From Trichodelitschia bisporula (Eukaryota): DNA of 64,000 nucleotides. Position numbers and translations under genes: made by a program. The notes beneath the pieces are model-generated. The model was not told where the DNA came from. It searched no databases and saw only the letters and a program-made list of their open reading frames with translations. Location of the stretch: NCBI GenBank assembly GCA_010356995.1, contig ML996687.1, positions 63,803-127,802 of the forward strand, given 5' to 3'. Below are positions 16,794 through 27,092 of the stretch, piece after piece (the first letter of the stretch is position 1; every line of letters begins with the position of its first letter).

Positions 16794-18306
16794 TCACCGT
16801 AACTCCACCCCCAACTTCTCAACCAACTCCCTCCTCACCCCCTCATGCAACCCATTCACCTCCTCATTCGTCAGCGTCCTCTCCAAACTCCTATAGTTAA
16901 TCCTGTAACACAAACTCCTCCTCCCGGTCTTCGGATGCCTGAACTCATCCACCAGCCGCACATCCTCCACAATGTTCCCCCCCACCCCCCTAACCAGCTC
17001 CATAACATCATTCTCATGGAACCCCGCCGTCGTCGCGCTCGGCGCCGGCCCCGCACCCCCTCCCCCCGCTGTGCTCCCAGTATGCTCCGCAACCCAAAAC
17101 GCCACATCCTTATAACACGCCGGATACTTACTAAAAGCCTCAAATCTTGGCCACGCTCCCTCCATCCCCAACCCCCTAAACTGCCCTAAAAACCGCTCAT
17201 CCGTACTCCAAAAAAGCCGTATGTCCGGAATCCCAAACAGCAGCATCGCAACCCGCTCCAGCCCGAGCCCGAACGCCCACCCAGCGCGATCACCCGCCCC
17301 TGCACCGTCGAGGATGGAATGCTGCACGATCCCGCATCCGAGGATCTCGAGCCAGGATCCTTGGTACAGGACTTCGAGCTCCCAGCTCGGAGACGTGAAG
17401 GGAAAGTACGCTTCAACCCAGCGCGCTTTTATGGGTTCGTTAGCTTGTGAGGCAGGGCGGGGTGCGCGCGCGAAGACGGTTCCGATGAGACCTTCAAGGC
17501 TGCGCTTGAGGTGCGCGGCCATGGCTGTCGTAAGCTCCGGGTCATGTTGAGCTTGCAACGGGTTGCGCTGTGCGTGAAATGGCGGGTTCGTATCCTCGAC
17601 CTCAATGCGGACGGGGGGTGCGGGGATCGCCTCTGTCTCTGCGCGGATTTCGGCGATGGAGGAGGAGGACATCGACCATGTGTGCGCGCCCTCGATTTGG
17701 TGGAACACGGGGTAGTGGCTGCGGTCTATGGCGTCGCGGCGGTACACGTCTGCGGCGATGAGGAAGGGGGAGTTGGAGGCGCGGAAGAGGTCGGCTTGGT
17801 GGGCGGAGGTGTGGGTGCGGAGGACGGTGGAGGAATTGATGTAGTAGGTGTCGGAGGGGGAGCGGCCAGGGTGGTTTGGGGGGAAGGAGAGGGAGTCGAA
17901 GTTTTGGTGGGTGGTTACGACCGCCGGGAGGGTAGTGTGGCTGGTGTAGCGTGGGAAGCGGGATTCGATTAGGGAGCGTGTTAAAGCTAGCGGATGTGAG
18001 TCTTGCAGGTGAAGTTTCCGTGGGATGGCGGCGAGGATGCTGGACGGTGTGTTGGTCCAGCTGTCTGTGGGATAAGTCTGGGAGCCGATTGTAAGAGTTG
18101 GAGGGTACGCTGGTGCGTGTTAGTGTGTGGACGAGTGATTGAGGTGCAATGGAGCTGGCTGCTTGAAATAGAGAAGTACAAGGCTGAATAGATATATTTT
18201 GTGCGAGGCAGTACGTACATGAAGACACCAATCTGCGCTGGCAGCGGAAGCACAGCGTCTCACGAAATAACCGTGCAGCTAATCGAGCCGTCCGCGTCGT
18301 CAGCAT
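16794..18306 (-). CDS. MSF1: Mitochondrial phenylalanyl-tRNA synthetase, 2 exons
   Basis: LRTHTSAHQ, YRRDAIDRSHYPVFHQ, YFPFTSPSWELE, GWAFGLGLER and C-terminal FDX-ACB domain (SLCYRINYRSLERTLTNEEV). Intron 18110-18218; Arg-rich presequence MLTTRTARLAARLFR (alternative ATG at 18321). Confidence 0.95.
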
Positions 18307-18727
18307 GTTATGTGGAGCCATGGTAGACGAAGTTAAAGTTTTGGCCGAAAAGTGCATCACGAGCTTAGACATGGTGTTGCGGCGCCGACGCAAGCCGGGG
18401 CGGGATGAACAATAGGCCGAGCTAGCGGCCCCGACGTCGGTCGCAAAAAAGTTGGTCCAAGTGCATCGGAAAGTTGGAGAGACTCCACCACACTACATCA
18501 CCACTCTTTACCCGGCATTTGATTCCCGAGATACTCCACATTTGTTTACTCCGCGCTTGTTTACTCCGCTTCCGGGGTTAGTATCTTACTTGCGCATTAC
18601 CGGGCTTATTCCCATTGCGCTACTACGGCACTTCTCGGTATCTCTCTCACTACATCGTAGCCTTCTCCGCATCGGCTTCCGCTCTTTCACTCATTCTTCC
18701 ACCTCTGCATACAATGCGCCTGGCACA

Positions 18728-19748
18728 ATGGCGACAACAGCAGCGCAGGTGAAGAAAGACGCGAGCCCGCGCACACGTACAATCGCATACCCGTTCTGGT
18801 TCGGCGGCTCAGCGTCTTGCTTCGCAGCATGCGTCACACACCCCCTTGACCTCGGTGCGCCGCCTCTCACTCGGAGTCTCCCACTCGGAGCCTCTCCCTC
18901 TCACCTGAACGCACTAACACCACACAGTCAAAGTCCGCCTCCAAACTCAACACCATGGCACACGCCTCAACATGGCGCAAATGTTCCGGCACATCGTCGT
19001 CTCCGACGGACTCAAGGGTCTCTACTCCGGCGTACCACATCCCCTCCCCCCATTTCAACCTCCCCACTGACCAGCCTAGCTCTCCGCCTCCCTCCTCCGC
19101 CAACTGACCTACTCAACAACCCGCTTCGGCATCTATGAAACCCTCAAAAACCGCAGCACCACCGCGCCCACCCTCCCCGCCCTCATCGCCATGGGTCTCA
19201 CATCCGGCTTCATCGGCGGCATCGCAGGAACACCAGCCGACATCATAAACGTCCGGATGCAAAACGACGCCTCGCTCCCCGCCGCCAAACGCCGTAACTA
19301 CGCCAACGCCATGGACGGCCTGATCCGAATGGTGCGCTCCGAAGGCGCCGCCTCGCTCTTCCGCGGCGTAGGCCCCAACGCCGTGCGCGCACTGCTCATG
19401 AGTGCAGCACAACTAGTCTCCTACGATGGCTTCAAGGCGGCGATACTCGTGCACACGGACTTGAAAGATGGGACGGCGGTGCACATCCTCGCTTCCTTCG
19501 GGGCCGGGTTCATGGCGACGAGTATCTGTTCCCCGGTGGATGTTATCAAGACGCGGGTTATGAGTTCGCATGGCGGAGGGGGCTTGGTGCATATCACGCG
19601 GGAGCTCATCAGGACGGAGGGCGTGAAGTGGATGTTCCGTGGGTGGGTACCGAGTTTTATGCGTCTCGGCCCGCATACGATTGTTACGTTTTTGTTTCTC
19701 GAGCAGCATAAGCGGCTGTGGAGATGGGTTCGAGGCGTCGAGATCTAG
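18728..19748 (+). CDS. DIC1: Mitochondrial dicarboxylate carrier (SLC25), 3 exons
   Basis: YPFWFGGSASCFAACVTHPLDLVKVRLQT, GTPADIINVRMQND, SPVDVIKTRVM, FMRLGPHT. Introns 18855-18927 and 19032-19079. Confidence 0.93.
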
Positions 19749-20054
19749 GCGGATGATGATGTAGCGTTTGCGTATGCGTTGAGCGTGGACGATGTTACTG
19801 TACTGCATTGAGGGGCGTCGGCGGTTTTCTCGCGCGCGTTGTTAGATAGATGGAGCTCTGTTACACCGGATACGAAGACGGCGGTAATGCGGCATGTACT
19901 ACATAGACGGAGACGGCGCGGTTCTTCTTACGATAGACGAATACAGGACGCACAACTGAAAGGACTAGGAATAGCGGCAAGCCAGACTGGACTCCAGGGA
20001 CCTCCTCCACCATGATGGCGAGGATCACCAACTCACAAAACCAACTCTGACGAC

Positions 20055-22988
20055 TCACCGCACCACATCCCCCTCCTTCTCAATCCCATGCAACCCCTCC
20101 AAAATATCACTCCCCCCCAGCAACCCCCCCCTCCTCCCCAACCCTCCCCTCTCCTCCGCCCACACCTCATGAAACTTAATACTCGCATCACTAGTCCCCA
20201 CAACCAGCACCCCCTCCTCCCTCGTCCCCGCACACCAAACCCCCCCCTCCCCCCTCTCCCCCCCACCCCCAGGTCCCCGCGGATACGCAACCGCACACAA
20301 CGCCCTATGCTCATCGCCCCACGGTATCCGCACCACGACGCTGCAACTCGGCCATGCGAAAACCGCTATCCGCACCTTGTGCTCCGGCTGCGCAAATCCA
20401 AACGTAGCACACACTTCGCGCCTCGTCCGGCTCCACACCAGCCCCGTGACTTGCGCCGCGCAGTCTATCAATGCGAGTCGAGCCCCCGACCCGGCGTGCA
20501 CGAAGTGGATCCGCCGGTCATTACTCCCGCCCCCTATCGCCAGCAAGCCGTCCTGCCACGGACACCACGCCAGCGCCTTAATCGCCGCCCTCAGTTCCCA
20601 ACTATGCCCCGCCGTGCTGGCAGGCAGCATATAGGCCCCCGCCTCCAGCGCCAGCACCTGTCGTTCCGGACTCGGTGCCCGCGGGGGCGCCCCACCCGCC
20701 GCCGCAGCCGCGCGTAACACAGCGGCTGTGCTAAACGCGTGCGCCACGTTATCATTCCCCCCACTCGCGAACGCACTCCCGTCCGCCGCCCACGCTAAGC
20801 CACATATCTGTTGCGCATGGGCCAGGACGCGGGCACGCAGCGTCAGGGCGCCGGGCCAGGCGAAGAGGTCGCGTTGGGCGGGGGAGGGCCATTCTAGGTC
20901 GTAGATGTAGATATGCCCCGCCTCGTCGCCGACGAGAAGGACTTCGGATTCTATGGTGAGTTCCGGGTCCCGGGCGGATGGGGCGCGGTGCGTGGTGGGC
21001 CGGAAGGAGACGCAGCTTATTGGGGAGGGGTGGACGGAGTCGAAGCGGGGCTCGGTGTCGAGGGGGGACCAGAGGAGGAGATGACCGTCGGCACGGCCGA
21101 TTGCTAGGATGGCTTGCCCGCCTGCCGGGGAGGAGAATGCGAGGCTGGTGACGTGGGCGGTGGAGGGTGTGTTTAGAGAGGAGGGTGTGTCGGCGCCGTG
21201 GGTTTCGGACCAGAGATACACGTGCGTGCCTAGGCCGACGGCGAGGACGTTGGCGGTGGGGGAGTAGGCTAGTAGGGTGCAGTAGTAGTCGTCGCGGAGG
21301 GAGGGGGCGTCGAGGACTGTGTTTTTGTCAGCAGGGGGTCTCCAGCACGACAGGAGACATATCTGAAGGGGATGATCGGCACGGGGCGCGGTTTCTTGAT
21401 AGCCTTGCGCGGCCCTGTCTGTATTAGCCTCGTCCGCACCCCGAATCCTACAGTACTCACGTTCCACCCCCCCCTCCCTAACCCACTCCCCATCCCTCCA
21501 CTCCCTCCCCGGCGCCGCCATCTCCCTCCCCAACACCCTCGCCGCAACATCAACCCCACACGCCAACGCCACCCGTCGTTCATAAACCTCCGCCTCCGCC
21601 CCCCGATCCACCCGTTCCGCAAACCCAGCCACATAAAGCGGCGCACTCGTGCCCGGCGCCAACAACCCGCCCCGTCCATCCGCAACCCCAACAACACTAT
21701 CCCCCATCGCCGCCGCCCCGCCCCCAACCCCCCACACCGCACCGCCACTTATCGCCCTCCCGGTGCCCACGCCTCGGACGCTACTCGCGCCTTCGGGCCG
21801 TCCCGGGGTCCGCAGGGCCAGTGCCTCTGGCACGCCGAGCGCGCGGTATACATCCTCGACCGCGGGCGGCGCACGGGGCACACGCGCGGCAAACGGGTCT
21901 GACGCGTTAGCCCGGGACCGCATCACGCGCTCGGCGGGCGAGAGCTGGGACGGCGGCTTGGAGATGTGGAACGCGTCGGTTGGACTCGCGGTCGGTGTGC
22001 GGGGCGGGACGAACCGGTCGAGCGGGACTTTACGGCGTGGGCTCGGGGGAAGTTGGCTCGGCCGTAAGGGGGCGGTGTTCGTGCGGGGTGTGATGGGGGA
22101 GAGTAGGGAGGGGGGTGTGGATGCGAGGGTGAGTGTGGGAGTAGGGAGGGGCGTAAGCGGCGGGCGGGTCTTCGGCAAGGAGAAGTAGTCTGCCTCCGCC
22201 TGTGAGGGGGTGACGGACCCCGAGGAGACCGAGTACAGCGTCTCATCTGAGTCGGACCCGTCGTCTGCGCCATCTGTCTGTGTGCCATTGACTGGAGTCG
22301 CCTCGTTTTCCTTCGTTGTGCGCAGGCGCAATAGCTCGACGAGGGATGTTCTGCGGTAGGCGGGGCGGCGTGTAGGCGTTAGAGCCGCGCTCGCGGTACG
22401 CCGGGCGACCTTCGCTTTCAGCGGAGACTCCGGTGTACGGCCCGTTGCCTCCCATGGGTCGTGTGCTGGAGTCGTGGGCGTGACAGGCGTGACTGGGTGC
22501 GGGCCAGGCGAGGCGGCAGGGTGTGGGGTTGCGGACCGCGGGGGAAGCAAGCAGCCGTGGGGCGAGGGGAAGACATCTGAGCTCCGTGTGTTGAGGGAGG
22601 AGATATGTGCGGAGTGGACACGTTTTGGTGTCGGGGTGGAGAGTTGCGGGCCGAACACCTCTTCTAAGGACAGCGCACGGCGGGCCGGTGGGCGAGTCGA
22701 GCCTCGACCACCGTTGAATATACCGGGGGTATCGCCTTGATACGCAGTTCGATACTCAGGCGACGAGTCCACGTCGTCATCGGCAGGCGTACAGGGCGTG
22801 CCGAGATTACCAGAGTGCTGCAGGAGGCCGGCATCACCAGCCTTCCCCAGCAGCGTACCATCCCCTCCGTGCTCCCACGGCAAACAGGCGAAGGGAGCGT
22901 TGTCGAATAAAGCTAGCGGCTGGCACAGTGGGCCCGGGACGGTGAAGAATACAGATTGAGGCGGGCGATCCGCGGCGGCGACGTCCAT
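20055..22988 (-). CDS. AMA1: Cdc20/Fizzy-family WD40 APC/C activator, Ama1-like
   Basis: C-box LDRFVP, PFR|VLDAPSLRDDYY, HAQQICGLAW, ASGGNDN, AIKALAWCPW, GGGSNDR and a C-terminal VR tail. Long N-terminus and WD40 insertions fit the Ama1 subfamily. Introns 21415-21460 (GT-AG) and 21319-21362 (AT-AC). Start codon and subfamily assignment uncertain. Confidence 0.82.
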   Translation of the reverse strand: MDVAAADRPPQSVFFTVPGPLCQPLALFDNAPFACLPWEHGGDGTLLGKAGDAGLLQHSGNLGTPCTPADDDVDSSPEYRTAYQGDTPGIFNGGRGSTRPPARRALSLEEVFGPQLSTPTPKRVHSAHISSLNTRSSDVFPSPHGCLLPPRSATPHPAASPGPHPVTPVTPTTPAHDPWEATGRTPESPLKAKVARRTASAALTPTRRPAYRRTSLVELLRLRTTKENEATPVNGTQTDGADDGSDSDETLYSVSSGSVTPSQAEADYFSLPKTRPPLTPLPTPTLTLASTPPSLLSPITPRTNTAPLRPSQLPPSPRRKVPLDRFVPPRTPTASPTDAFHISKPPSQLSPAERVMRSRANASDPFAARVPRAPPAVEDVYRALGVPEALALRTPGRPEGASSVRGVGTGRAISGGAVWGVGGGAAAMGDSVVGVADGRGGLLAPGTSAPLYVAGFAERVDRGAEAEVYERRVALACGVDVAARVLGREMAAPGREWRDGEWVREGGVEREYCRIRGADEANTDRAAQGYQETAPRADHPLQICLLSCWRPPADKNTVLDAPSLRDDYYCTLLAYSPTANVLAVGLGTHVYLWSETHGADTPSSLNTPSTAHVTSLAFSSPAGGQAILAIGRADGHLLLWSPLDTEPRFDSVHPSPISCVSFRPTTHRAPSARDPELTIESEVLLVGDEAGHIYIYDLEWPSPAQRDLFAWPGALTLRARVLAHAQQICGLAWAADGSAFASGGNDNVAHAFSTAAVLRAAAAAGGAPPRAPSPERQVLALEAGAYMLPASTAGHSWELRAAIKALAWCPWQDGLLAIGGGSNDRRIHFVHAGSGARLALIDCAAQVTGLVWSRTRREVCATFGFAQPEHKVRIAVFAWPSCSVVVRIPWGDEHRALCAVAYPRGPGGGGERGEGGVWCAGTREEGVLVVGTSDASIKFHEVWAEERGGLGRRGGLLGGSDILEGLHGIEKEGDVVR
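21319..21362 (-). other. Non-canonical AT-AC spliceosomal intron (44 nt)
   Basis: Minus strand reads CCC TTC AG|ATATGT...GCTGAC AAAAACAC|A GTC CTC GAC GCC; removing it restores PFRVLDAP. Confidence 0.75.
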
Positions 22989-23359
22989 GGCTGGACAGCA
23001 AAAAAAAAAAAGGACTGAAACACACAAAGGCCCGGATGTCAAACGGGATGCGATATTGAGAAGACGGGGAGCATGAGATACGAAGCTAAGAGGCACACGG
23101 GTCGATTGCTTCGCTATGGGTTGCTGGTGTTAGTATCGTGCGGCCTTTGTGGTCCTGCGGTGTGAGCGCCTTTTGTTGCCTCTGCGAGCGCCGGTCTCCA
23201 CGTCGCCTTCCATGTCCACCAGCGTCAGTGCCGTCCATTGTCCCATTGCTGCTGGCCATCGAGTGCTGACCAGGGTCGCTTACCGCAAGCGTTGACGACC
23301 CACCCGCCAGGAAGCCGCAGGCACAACCGGCAGCATTCCCTTTCTGCCTAAGCTCCCCA

Positions 23360-25113
<1,754 letters not shown>

Positions 25114-25973
25114 TGTCGATGGGATACAGACCTATCTCAACTTCTGCGAGCTCTATATCCTATATCGGCTTCCTGAGCTAGCACGCCCGAACAGCTCCCA
25201 TACCCCGTCAGCCCCATTAGAACTACAACCCCGCGGGGCGCAATGATAGCCCGAAGTCGGGCATGATTGGTGCATAATCGGCTCGCGGCATGCAATGCAA
25301 CCTCGGTTTGGAAGCTGTATCCCGGACGCGTCCATGGTAACGTACGAGGTGGATCCCCGCCGTTAACGGAGTAGACTAAGAGGGCCGTCGATAGATCCCG
25401 AAAGCTAGTGGCTTATGGAGAATTCGGAGTCTAAGGTGCGGTGAGCCGAAAAGGCGAGTGAAGTCGGACTGGCCCGAGGTGGTAACGGTTAAAGTCGCTA
25501 CGTAATCAGCCGAAGGGTCTCAAGGCCGGGCGAAAAGAATGATGGCGCCCCTCCAAGAAGTTATGGCCGTTTTTGCCAGTATCCTTGCTGGACACAAGGC
25601 AGAGACTATCTACGGGCGCGCCACGACTATTTCGCATAGGCCTTGGTCCAAAGGCTAGGTGAAAAAGTGATAGCTCACCTTTGGAAAGTTGTAACAGCCA
25701 TTTGCGAAGCTTTTGGCTGATATAGAACGCAGAGACTATCGGCGGGTGCGTCATTACTTTTTGCTCAACCCATTGTCCCACACCTATCGGAAGGGATCAA
25801 CATTCTTCCCTCCCACTCTAGACCTGATTGTCACAAGCCTAGCCCAACCCCCGCCAAGAGCGGGGTGCATCACAAGGCGCCCGGGGTGCGTACACTTTTT
25901 TCTCGGGCCCCGCTGCGTCGTCCTCTGCGATATCGCCGTCCCCACATATCATCCACCGGTCACCACAAGCACA

Positions 25974-27092
25974 ATGGCGACCAATTCCATCAAGCTGCTC
26001 ACGGGAAACAGCCACCCAGCTCTGGCGAAGCAGGTTGCCGAACGGTAGGCCCTTCGTCTTGTTGCGGGGAGTGTAGGACTGACGAATAGGCTCGGTATCG
26101 AACTGACTAAGATACTGGTCGTGCAGTATTCGAACCAGGAGACGAGCGTGACGATTGGGGAGTCGGTGCGGGATGAGGATGGTAGGTGGTCTAGAGATTA
26201 CTTGAGCACCGGCTAATGAAGCAGTCTTCGTCCTCCAATCCACGGCACCAGGCGACATCAACGACGGCCTCATGGAACTCCTCATCATGATCAACGCCTG
26301 CAAAACCGCCTCTGCGCGGCGCATAACTGCCGTCCTGCCCAACTTCCCTTACGCACGCCAAGACAAAAAAGACAAGTCCCGCGCCCCTATCACCGCCAAA
26401 CTCATGGCCAACATGCTGCAAACCGCAGGCTGCAACCACGTCATAACCATGGATCTCCACGCCAGCCAAATCCAAGGCTTTTTCAACGTGCCAGTCGATA
26501 ATCTGTACGCTGAACCCAGCACCCTGCGCTGGATCCGCGAGAATCTGGATGTGAAGGACTGTGTGATTGTGAGTCCGGATGCGGGGGGCGCGAAGCGCGC
26601 GACGAGTATTGCGGATGGACTGGATTTGGGGTTTGCGCTTATTCATAAGGAGAGGGCGAGGCCGAATGAGGTCTCGCGCATGGTGCTTGTGGGCGATGTC
26701 AAGGACCGCGTTGCGATTATCGTTGACGATATGGCGGACACGTGTGGCACGCTTGTCAAGGCTGCGGACGTGGTGATGCAACACGGTGCCAAAGAGGCCA
26801 TCGCCATTGTTACGCATGGCATTCTGAGCGCGAATGCCGTGGAGCGACTGAACAACAGTAAGCTGAAGAAGGTGGTTGTTACGAACACGGTGCCGCACGA
26901 CGACAAGAAGGCCATGTGCCCGCGGCTCGAGACGATTGATATCAGCGGGACGGTGAGTTGCTGATTTACCGTTCAATTCGGCACTCCTTTTCTGTGCTCA
27001 TTGCTAACGTACTGCAGCTGGCTGAGGCTTGTCGGCGTACCCACAATGGCGAGAGCGTGTCCTTCCTCTTCAAGCACGCACCGGCTGACTAG
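25974..27092 (+). CDS. Ribose-phosphate pyrophosphokinase (PRPP synthetase), 4 exons
   Basis: [58 protein letters not shown]-terminal [10 protein letters not shown]. Confidence 0.96.

Follow-up and report, generated by a model that had tools for sequence, protein, structure and literature searches.

Introns that have AT at their start and AC at their end while otherwise carrying the signals of ordinary, U2-type introns (the "type II" AT-AC introns) are very rare, 24 of them having been counted when ~610,000 introns from five species were surveyed (Sheth et al. 2006, PMC1557818; here and below, published work is cited from the accessible passages of each paper). Here we describe an intron that looks to be of this kind in a 64,000-nucleotide (nt) stretch of contig ML996687.1 from the Dothideomycete Trichodelitschia bisporula (assembly GCA_010356995.1, positions 63,803 to 127,802), the whole of which is called the window below. 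The intron lies in a minus-strand gene for an AMA1-like activator of the anaphase-promoting complex/cyclosome (APC/C), is precisely removed in the RNA of one sample, and most likely, judging by its distribution among orthologs, has been inherited from the common ancestor of several classes of Pezizomycotina.

The closest described counterparts are the introns of the vertebrate genes SCN4A/SCN5A (PMC1557818), whose ends are likewise AT..AC and whose 5' splice site is otherwise of the U2 type. Type II introns keep their borders over long evolutionary distances, some of them from human to pufferfish, and have the metazoan consensus /ATAAGT (PMC1557818; PMC5029451), while the T. bisporula intron starts with ATATGT, ATAAGT being found in five of the 21 distinct homologous AT-AC introns. 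Unlike the SCN4A/SCN5A introns, the AMA1 intron occurs in a fungal lineage reported to lack the minor spliceosome, is 44-53 nt long with the presumed branch site ~10 nt from its end, belongs to a putative meiotic APC/C activator, and has natural AT-AG, AT-AA and GT-AG derivatives at the same site. The absence of U12-type splicing from Ascomycota/Pezizomycotina has been reported previously (PMC2846911).

That the major spliceosome of an ascomycete is able to ligate exons across A(+1)/C(-1) intron ends is known from Saccharomyces cerevisiae, a yeast without the minor spliceosome, where it has been observed for an engineered actin intron (Parker & Siliciano 1993, cited in PMC5029451) and for an AT-AC intron nested in RPL30 (Gould et al. 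2016, PMC5029451). The first and last bases of an intron form a non-canonical G-G pair, for which an A-C pair can substitute in yeast (PMC11585973). The RPL30 splice is a by-product at the 1-2% level, uses an atypical 5' site and has no role in coding (PMC5029451), whereas the AMA1 one is conserved and is the only route to the functional frame. Other non-canonical junctions of Pezizomycotina, at the ~0.3% level of "other" junctions, are the rare AT-AC junctions in RNA sequencing data of Fusarium graminearum (PMC3577648) and the introns of filamentous-fungal xylanase genes, hypothesised to be of the AT-AC II type (PMC1557818). These do not concern AMA1, and the accessible passages of both papers report no conservation across classes.

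The other system to be compared is AMA1/SPO70 of S. cerevisiae, a member of the same gene family with Mer1-activated splicing, in which a suboptimal 5' splice site likewise stands between transcription and the functional protein (PMC11585973). Its intron has GU-AG ends, a 5' site that departs from the consensus and the Mer1-bound enhancer AYACCCUY, while no AYACCCTY is seen by eye in the intron of the window. In Fusarium, a premature stop codon of FgAMA1 is edited (PMC11156358). Both these precedents, as well as the lack of U12-type splicing in ascomycetes, had been named in a first-pass annotation made from the letters of the window, and all three were found in the papers just cited. Our literature searches turned up no account of AT-AC introns in AMA1 orthologs of fungi (subscription papers, e.g. 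the 2019 FgAMA1 paper, and supplements lay outside their coverage), and the only paper found to bring up AMA1, AT-AC introns and meiosis, the yeast review (PMC11585973), deals with each of them separately. The new parts are the deep conservation of the AMA1 AT-AC intron and the annotation errors attributed to it, the type II AT-AC intron as a kind being already known.

Removal of the AT-AC intron in RNA

According to its domain match and homologs, the gene, encoded on the minus strand, is an AMA1-like Cdc20/Fizzy-family activator with a probable WD40 propeller (coding total 2841 bases, 947 residues; Table 1). In Pfam, the read-through translation hits PF24807, the WD40 domain of CDC20/Fizzy, with E 2.6e-56 and 191.5 bits, slightly below the curated cut-off of 200. 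The top proteins in a set of 120 homologs come from Dothideomycetes (61-62% identity, E down to 9e-172), and several lower-ranked ones are called "meiosis-specific APC/C activator protein AMA1" by their source (NCBI/JGI), the names being those of the source annotation only. Cdc20/Fizzy-family activators carry a C-box, a DRF/YIP-like motif, in their N-terminal part. The translation of exon 1 contains the C-box-like PLDRFVPPR, with PDRF kept in the ortholog consensus. The C-terminal IR tail is not found in the window protein, which ends with ...GDVVR, the final Arg being kept and Ile replaced by Val; almost all complete ortholog open reading frames (ORFs) end with IR, and the L037-L040 group of orthologous loci ends with VVR like the window protein.

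The conserved motif KKPRPVPIIPFR and the start of the WD40 domain, VLDAPSLRDDYY, lie in different frames, the latter in a long open one. Around the junction the minus strand reads ...CCG ATC ATC CCC TTC AG/ATATGTCTCCTGTCGTGCTGGAGACCCCCTGCTGACAAAAACAC/A GTC CTC GAC GCC CCC... (slashes mark exon borders), and excision of the 44 nt 21362..21319 joins AG to A, yielding Arg followed by VLDAP (...IIPFR/VLDAP...). The product of the micro-exon is KKPRPVPIIPF-R, and orthologs carry ...K.VP.IPFR/VLDAP at the same place. Retention of the intron shifts the frame, with a stop codon at 21271-21269. The BLASTP alignment of the frame-B piece with one ortholog (9/20 identities, E 0.027) is weak alone, its position directly before VLD being the informative part.

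The locus is covered by four public runs, whose contigs were aligned to positions 17000-26000. Two of the runs, X1 and X2, are DNA, and the other two, X3 and X4, form one sample of one study; their RNA label is a guess, and they are taken as RNA-derived because they contain GT..AG joints absent from the DNA runs. Contigs of both X3 and X4 have a joint 21317 -> 21362 that skips exactly 44 bases, with one base fitting either side. On the minus strand this is AT..AC, or TA..CA with the cut one base over. The intron is precisely removed in the RNA of this sample. Eight other joints are present in the same RNA-like contigs in the 9-kilobase stretch, seven of them GT..AG on the strand of the gene and one a 120-base skip; one of the eight is intron 1 (X4), and the remaining seven (six GT..AG and the 120-base skip) belong to neighbouring genes. 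Intron lengths derived from the joints are 43-109 nt, so that 44 nt is ordinary here.

Contigs of the DNA runs X1 and X2 have zero joints and zero differing letters at 21318-21362. As X1 and X2 are possibly the assembly's own source reads, this match excludes an artefact of the assembler but not a difference from one sample to another.

Thus far, the first-pass annotation stands. The intron that it had placed at 21319..21362, with AT..AC ends and in an AMA1-like Cdc20-family gene, is exact in coordinates and letters; the RNA junction expected from 21363 to 21318 is present in the contigs of both X3 and X4 with the one-base ambiguity; and at 21362, where raw DNA reads might have revealed an error, no letter differs in the DNA contigs. 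It had also named a 35-nt GTCGTG..CAG intron as an example of a junction that would speak against it, and this junction is not among the joints listed for the contigs of the four runs. On paper, both this intron and a 32-nt GTGCTG..CAG one are in frame; they were rejected, since neither has a listed joint and both would destroy the conserved PFRV join. Adenosine-to-inosine editing of the first A, mimicking GU, was rejected by reasoning: the outcome would be G paired with C, and the base before the A is G instead of U.

By its internal signals and length the intron looks U2-type. The donor ATATGT coincides with the fungal consensus GTATGT at every position except +1, the upstream exon ends with AG, and the branch motif is GCTGAC, while the U12 motifs ATATCCTT and TCCTTAAC were not found in the intron, which agrees with the U2-like character proposed at the outset. 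Given the donor, the exonic AG, the fungal branch motif and the typical length, together with the published A-C pairing, the splicing of AT-AC introns in yeast and the absence of U12-type splicing, the intron is best filed with the type II AT-AC introns.

Table 1. Elements of the AMA1-like gene in the window (positions of the window)
Feature	Position	Strand	Length	Description	Evidence
Exon 1	21461..22988	-	1528 nt	ATG 22988-22986; N-terminal region incl. C-box-like PLDRFVPPR	ORF/translation; RNA contig X3 record 20 covers 21728-23013
Intron 1	21415..21460	-	46 nt	canonical, GTGAGT...GCTAATACAGACAG (GTGAGT...ACAG)	joint 21413->21460 (cut +1), CT..AC on + strand, run X4
Micro-exon (exon 2)	21363..21414	-	52 nt	encodes (R)PRKAIKKPRPVPIIPF(R), conserved motif right before the WD40 domain	both flanking RNA joints in X4
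AT-AC intron	21319..21362	-	44 nt	phase 2 in Arg codon; AG/ATATGT...GCTGACAAAAACAC/A	RNA joint in X3 and X4, none in DNA runs
Branch-site-like GCTGAC	21327..21332	-		presumed branch A 21328, 9 nt before the last intron base	from sequence
Exon 3	20055..21318	-		probable CDC20/Fizzy WD40 propeller (VLDAPSLRDDYY...GDVVR); stop codon 20057-20055	RNA contigs X3 record 19 and X4 record 24 reach 21317 and go on beyond the joint

Intron states at orthologous loci

A scan of metagenome contigs yielded 76 orthologous loci with 46-62% identity over the WD40 region, of which 74 are scorable and two lack the domain start. An AT..AC intron at the same codon phase is present in 31 of the 74 loci, and one more locus is cut at the 5' end, with the intron end AC preserved. 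The identical phase is occupied by a GT..AG intron in four loci (L053, L055, L057, L076), by AT..AG in two (L054, L059) and by AT..AA in two (L052 and L056, one protein being encoded by both). In L027 the intron is GT..AG slid by 2 nt (CGAG/GTATGT...GCAG/TA), and 33/74 loci have no intron.

There are 21 distinct AT-AC intron sequences, including the one from the window, with lengths of 44-53 nt. The most frequent start is ATATGT (11), followed by ATAAGT (5), ATACGT (3) and ATAGGT (2); the ends are CAC (14), TAC (6) and AAC (1), and in most of these introns CTGAC, CTAAC or CTAAT precedes the 3' end by ~10 nt. In two loci (L021 and L047) AC is followed by an exon that starts with G, which leaves AT..AC as the only register whose intron ends do not vary from locus to locus; this register is also the one fixed by the GT..AG homologs.

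We built a quick maximum-likelihood tree (LG+G4, with support by the SH-like approximate likelihood ratio test, SH-aLRT, only) of 54 distinct locus proteins and 32 named proteins, duplicates and loci with less than 300 residues after VLDAP being left out. AT-AC loci are found beside named Dothideomycetes of the Pleosporales (Pyrenophora, Zopfia, Paraphaeosphaeria), and the protein of one locus (L006) is nearly identical to that of Aureobasidium pullulans. Two AT-AC loci fall into a starred clade with the Arthoniomycete Alyxoria, others are among Leotiomycetes (Botrytis, Clarireedia, Cadophora, Podosphaera), and two groups are unplaced in the tree. The Mycosphaerellales-like clade is intron-less except for the slid GT-AG intron of L027. 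AT-AC introns are seen on both sides of the midpoint split, and the fewest changes explaining the states on the tree are seven between presence and absence and four between AT-AC and other ends.

Since both the position and the AT..AC ends are common to orthologs from several Pezizomycotina classes, the intron is most likely inherited: the comparison is best explained by one ancient AT-AC intron in the common ancestor of these classes, followed by several losses and conversions to GT-AG. As it has been lost in 33/74 loci and converted to GT-AG in at least five, the intron is dispensable in many lineages. The first-pass annotation had proposed an alignment of orthologous loci at this position; the alignment, in which AT..AC (31/74) and GT..AG (four plus one slid) are both represented, gives no support to its suggestion of a further, independent way of restricting Ama1, the intron being widespread across several classes and apparently inherited rather than invented independently.

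Several loci deserve separate description. In L027 (about 2440-2505) both splice sites are 2 nt downstream of the AT-AC register, the acceptor being the CAG that elsewhere overlaps the AT-AC acceptor, and the exons contain two compensating extra bases; it is the sole intron carrier in an otherwise intron-less clade. In one Leotiomycete-like clade, loci with AT..AA (L052/L056), AT..AG (L054, L059) and GT..AG (L053, L055, L057) are mutually closest relatives, and L058 is intron-less. The intron of these loci is just upstream of the VLDAP match, which starts at 2501 in L052, L056 and L057, 1632 in L053, 1230 in L054, 1362 in L055 and 303 in L059. The states of L052-L059 look like a natural stepwise conversion series. 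In L052 there is possibly an alternative AAG acceptor 3 nt upstream, adding one residue.

In the 150 nt upstream of VLDAP (L001-L076), the AT-AC intron and the canonical one that precedes the micro-exon tend to go together, either both being there or both missing. In a rough regular-expression test, the W..W motif is contiguous with PFR in 19/26 distinct intron-less loci and is not contiguous with it in 27/28 distinct intron-bearing ones.

Persistence of the intron and competing explanations

Taken together, these data make it very probable that we deal with a genuine spliceosomal type II AT-AC intron, inherited and ordinarily spliced, that would persist mainly as a two-mutation trap and is not a proven regulatory switch. 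The intron would be removed by the major spliceosome, U1 and U6 recognising AG/AUAUGU via every position except +1 and GCUGAC serving as the branch site, while the non-Watson-Crick pair A(+1)-C(-1), in place of the usual G-G pair, would permit exon ligation. A CAG is made up of the intron's final C and the AG that opens the exon, so that G at position +1 alone would probably move the acceptor by two bases and break the frame. The trap would have two sides: with A-to-G at +1 only, splicing would prefer the overlapping CAG that lies two bases downstream and the frame would shift, and with C-to-G at the last base only, the ends would be the mismatched pair A..G. L027 is a compensated version of exactly this two-base shift. 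Such a two-step barrier can explain long persistence of the intron without a regulatory role.

Several observations weigh against this interpretation or some part of it. The AT..AG and AT..AA forms (L054, L059, L052/L056) fit a strict trap argument poorly. The splicing is seen in only one RNA sample, labelled as RNA by guess, whose contigs give neither the splicing efficiency nor rare unspliced forms, and it is the comparison with other loci, not the RNA itself, that excludes the one-base alternative TA..CA. Both the branch point and the use of the U2 spliceosome are predictions. As for the ancestry, the tree is a quick one with a long branch (0.76) for the window protein and without a known root, and nearness to named proteins is the only basis for placing the metagenome loci.

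The alternative that survives best, though we regard it as unlikely, is that the AT-AC ends are selected as a splicing gate: a weak intron, limited at the second step of splicing, would be removed inefficiently in vegetative cells and well in sexual tissue alone, restricting functional Ama1 to meiosis and ascosporogenesis. The ends would then have been maintained over hundreds of millions of years, and in lineages with loss or conversion of the intron another mechanism, e.g. the editing of a premature stop in Fusarium, would have taken the place of the gate. The non-canonical ends are indeed kept in at least three classes, in a gene whose orthologs are gated after transcription elsewhere, and the WD40 domain of the window protein is reached only by the exact AT-AC splice, retention leading to the early stop codon; however, such persistence is also predicted by the two-mutation trap, and a gate agrees poorly with the 33 intron-less loci and the five with GT-AG, with at least seven changes of presence or absence and four of termini on the tree. 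Moreover, the 21 distinct introns share by eye no element beyond splice signals, the Mer1 enhancer known from yeast was not seen by eye in the window's intron, which contains GAGACCCCCTGC, and the sole RNA sample, of unknown stage, yielded the spliced form.

A U12-type intron, or a recent relic of one, removed by the minor spliceosome, is highly improbable: AT-AC ends are a hallmark of one U12 subtype, and the branch site is close to the 3' end, but none of the 21 distinct AT-AC introns starts with ATATCC, all of them having U2-like ATA[T/A/C/G]GT starts and the ordinary fungal branch motif CTRAY; this type of splicing is reported missing in the lineage (accessible passages of PMC2846911), and in a scan of the 64-kilobase window, which is the scope of this result, no Rfam family, small nuclear RNAs included, reached the gathering score. 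It is equally hard to believe in an artefactual junction (an error of sequencing or assembly in a GT-AG intron, the 35-nt intron or a TA..CA register), for although the aligner gives the joint as TG..TA on the plus strand with one base of play and X1 and X2 are possibly the assembly's own reads, independently assembled DNA contigs of these two runs match the window at both intron ends, two RNA contigs skip 44 nt with no 35-nt joint listed, and 20 other distinct orthologous introns have the same AT..AC ends, L021 and L047 excluding a constant TA..CA register.

Gene models and neighbouring transcripts

The type II AT-AC intron, as interpreted above, seems to have left a trace in public protein models. 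Among the 120 homologs, the correct join, P[F/Y][R/K] directly before VLDAP, is seen in 58. In 35 others it is L, I or M that opens the domain, as would result from gene models that take the CAG two bases downstream for the acceptor and leave out the micro-exon. In eight, VLDAP is directly preceded by Thr (ACN), corresponding to read-through of an intron ending with AC; in the Aureobasidium and Trypethelium models of this kind, the retained part begins with RYV. The rest have another residue before V (12), no motif (6) or R/K without PF (1). Of another 119 proteins, retrieved by means of a Leotiomycete-like locus, 34 have the correct join, nine have Thr before VLDAP, including a Botrytis cinerea model, and 17 have R/K without PF. 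This looks like systematic mis-annotation of AMA1 orthologs caused by the AT-AC ends.

The window itself contains one frame that is open for 1024 codons, from 23129 to 20055 on the minus strand, through both introns and the micro-exon, so that an intron-blind ORF caller would give a plausible single-exon protein without the conserved KKPRPVPIIPFR motif.

Some further features were observed around the intron. Long C/G runs at 20240-20270, in the 3' coding part (encoding GGGGERGEGG), break both DNA and RNA contigs, leaving loose ends of C runs, and run X1 has two differing letters within this stretch, at 20261 and 20266. A 2850-nt RNA contig from X4 spans 21848-24353, covering the 5' portion of the AMA1-like gene and reaching into the minus-strand gene that lies upstream, which could be due to overlapping transcripts, read-through or mere assembly across adjoining untranslated regions. 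In the neighbouring minus-strand gene, a 15-nt micro-exon 24546..24532 (GAACTTTGGACGAAG) lies between the GT-AG introns 24611..24547 (65 nt) and 24531..24488 (44 nt), which explains the joint with 120 bases skipped and 11 letters between.

The AMA1-like gene provides a well-documented case of a natural, coding and obligatory AT-AC intron in an ascomycete, presumably handled by the major spliceosome. The AT-AC ends would account for the recurrent annotation error in public homologs, in which the micro-exon with its conserved motif is dropped. Moreover, a single site shows an evolutionary series of AT-AC, AT-AG, AT-AA, GT-AG, slid GT-AG and loss, usable for studying the co-evolution of terminal dinucleotides, and the idea of regulated AMA1 splicing is directly testable in species that have kept, converted or lost the intron.

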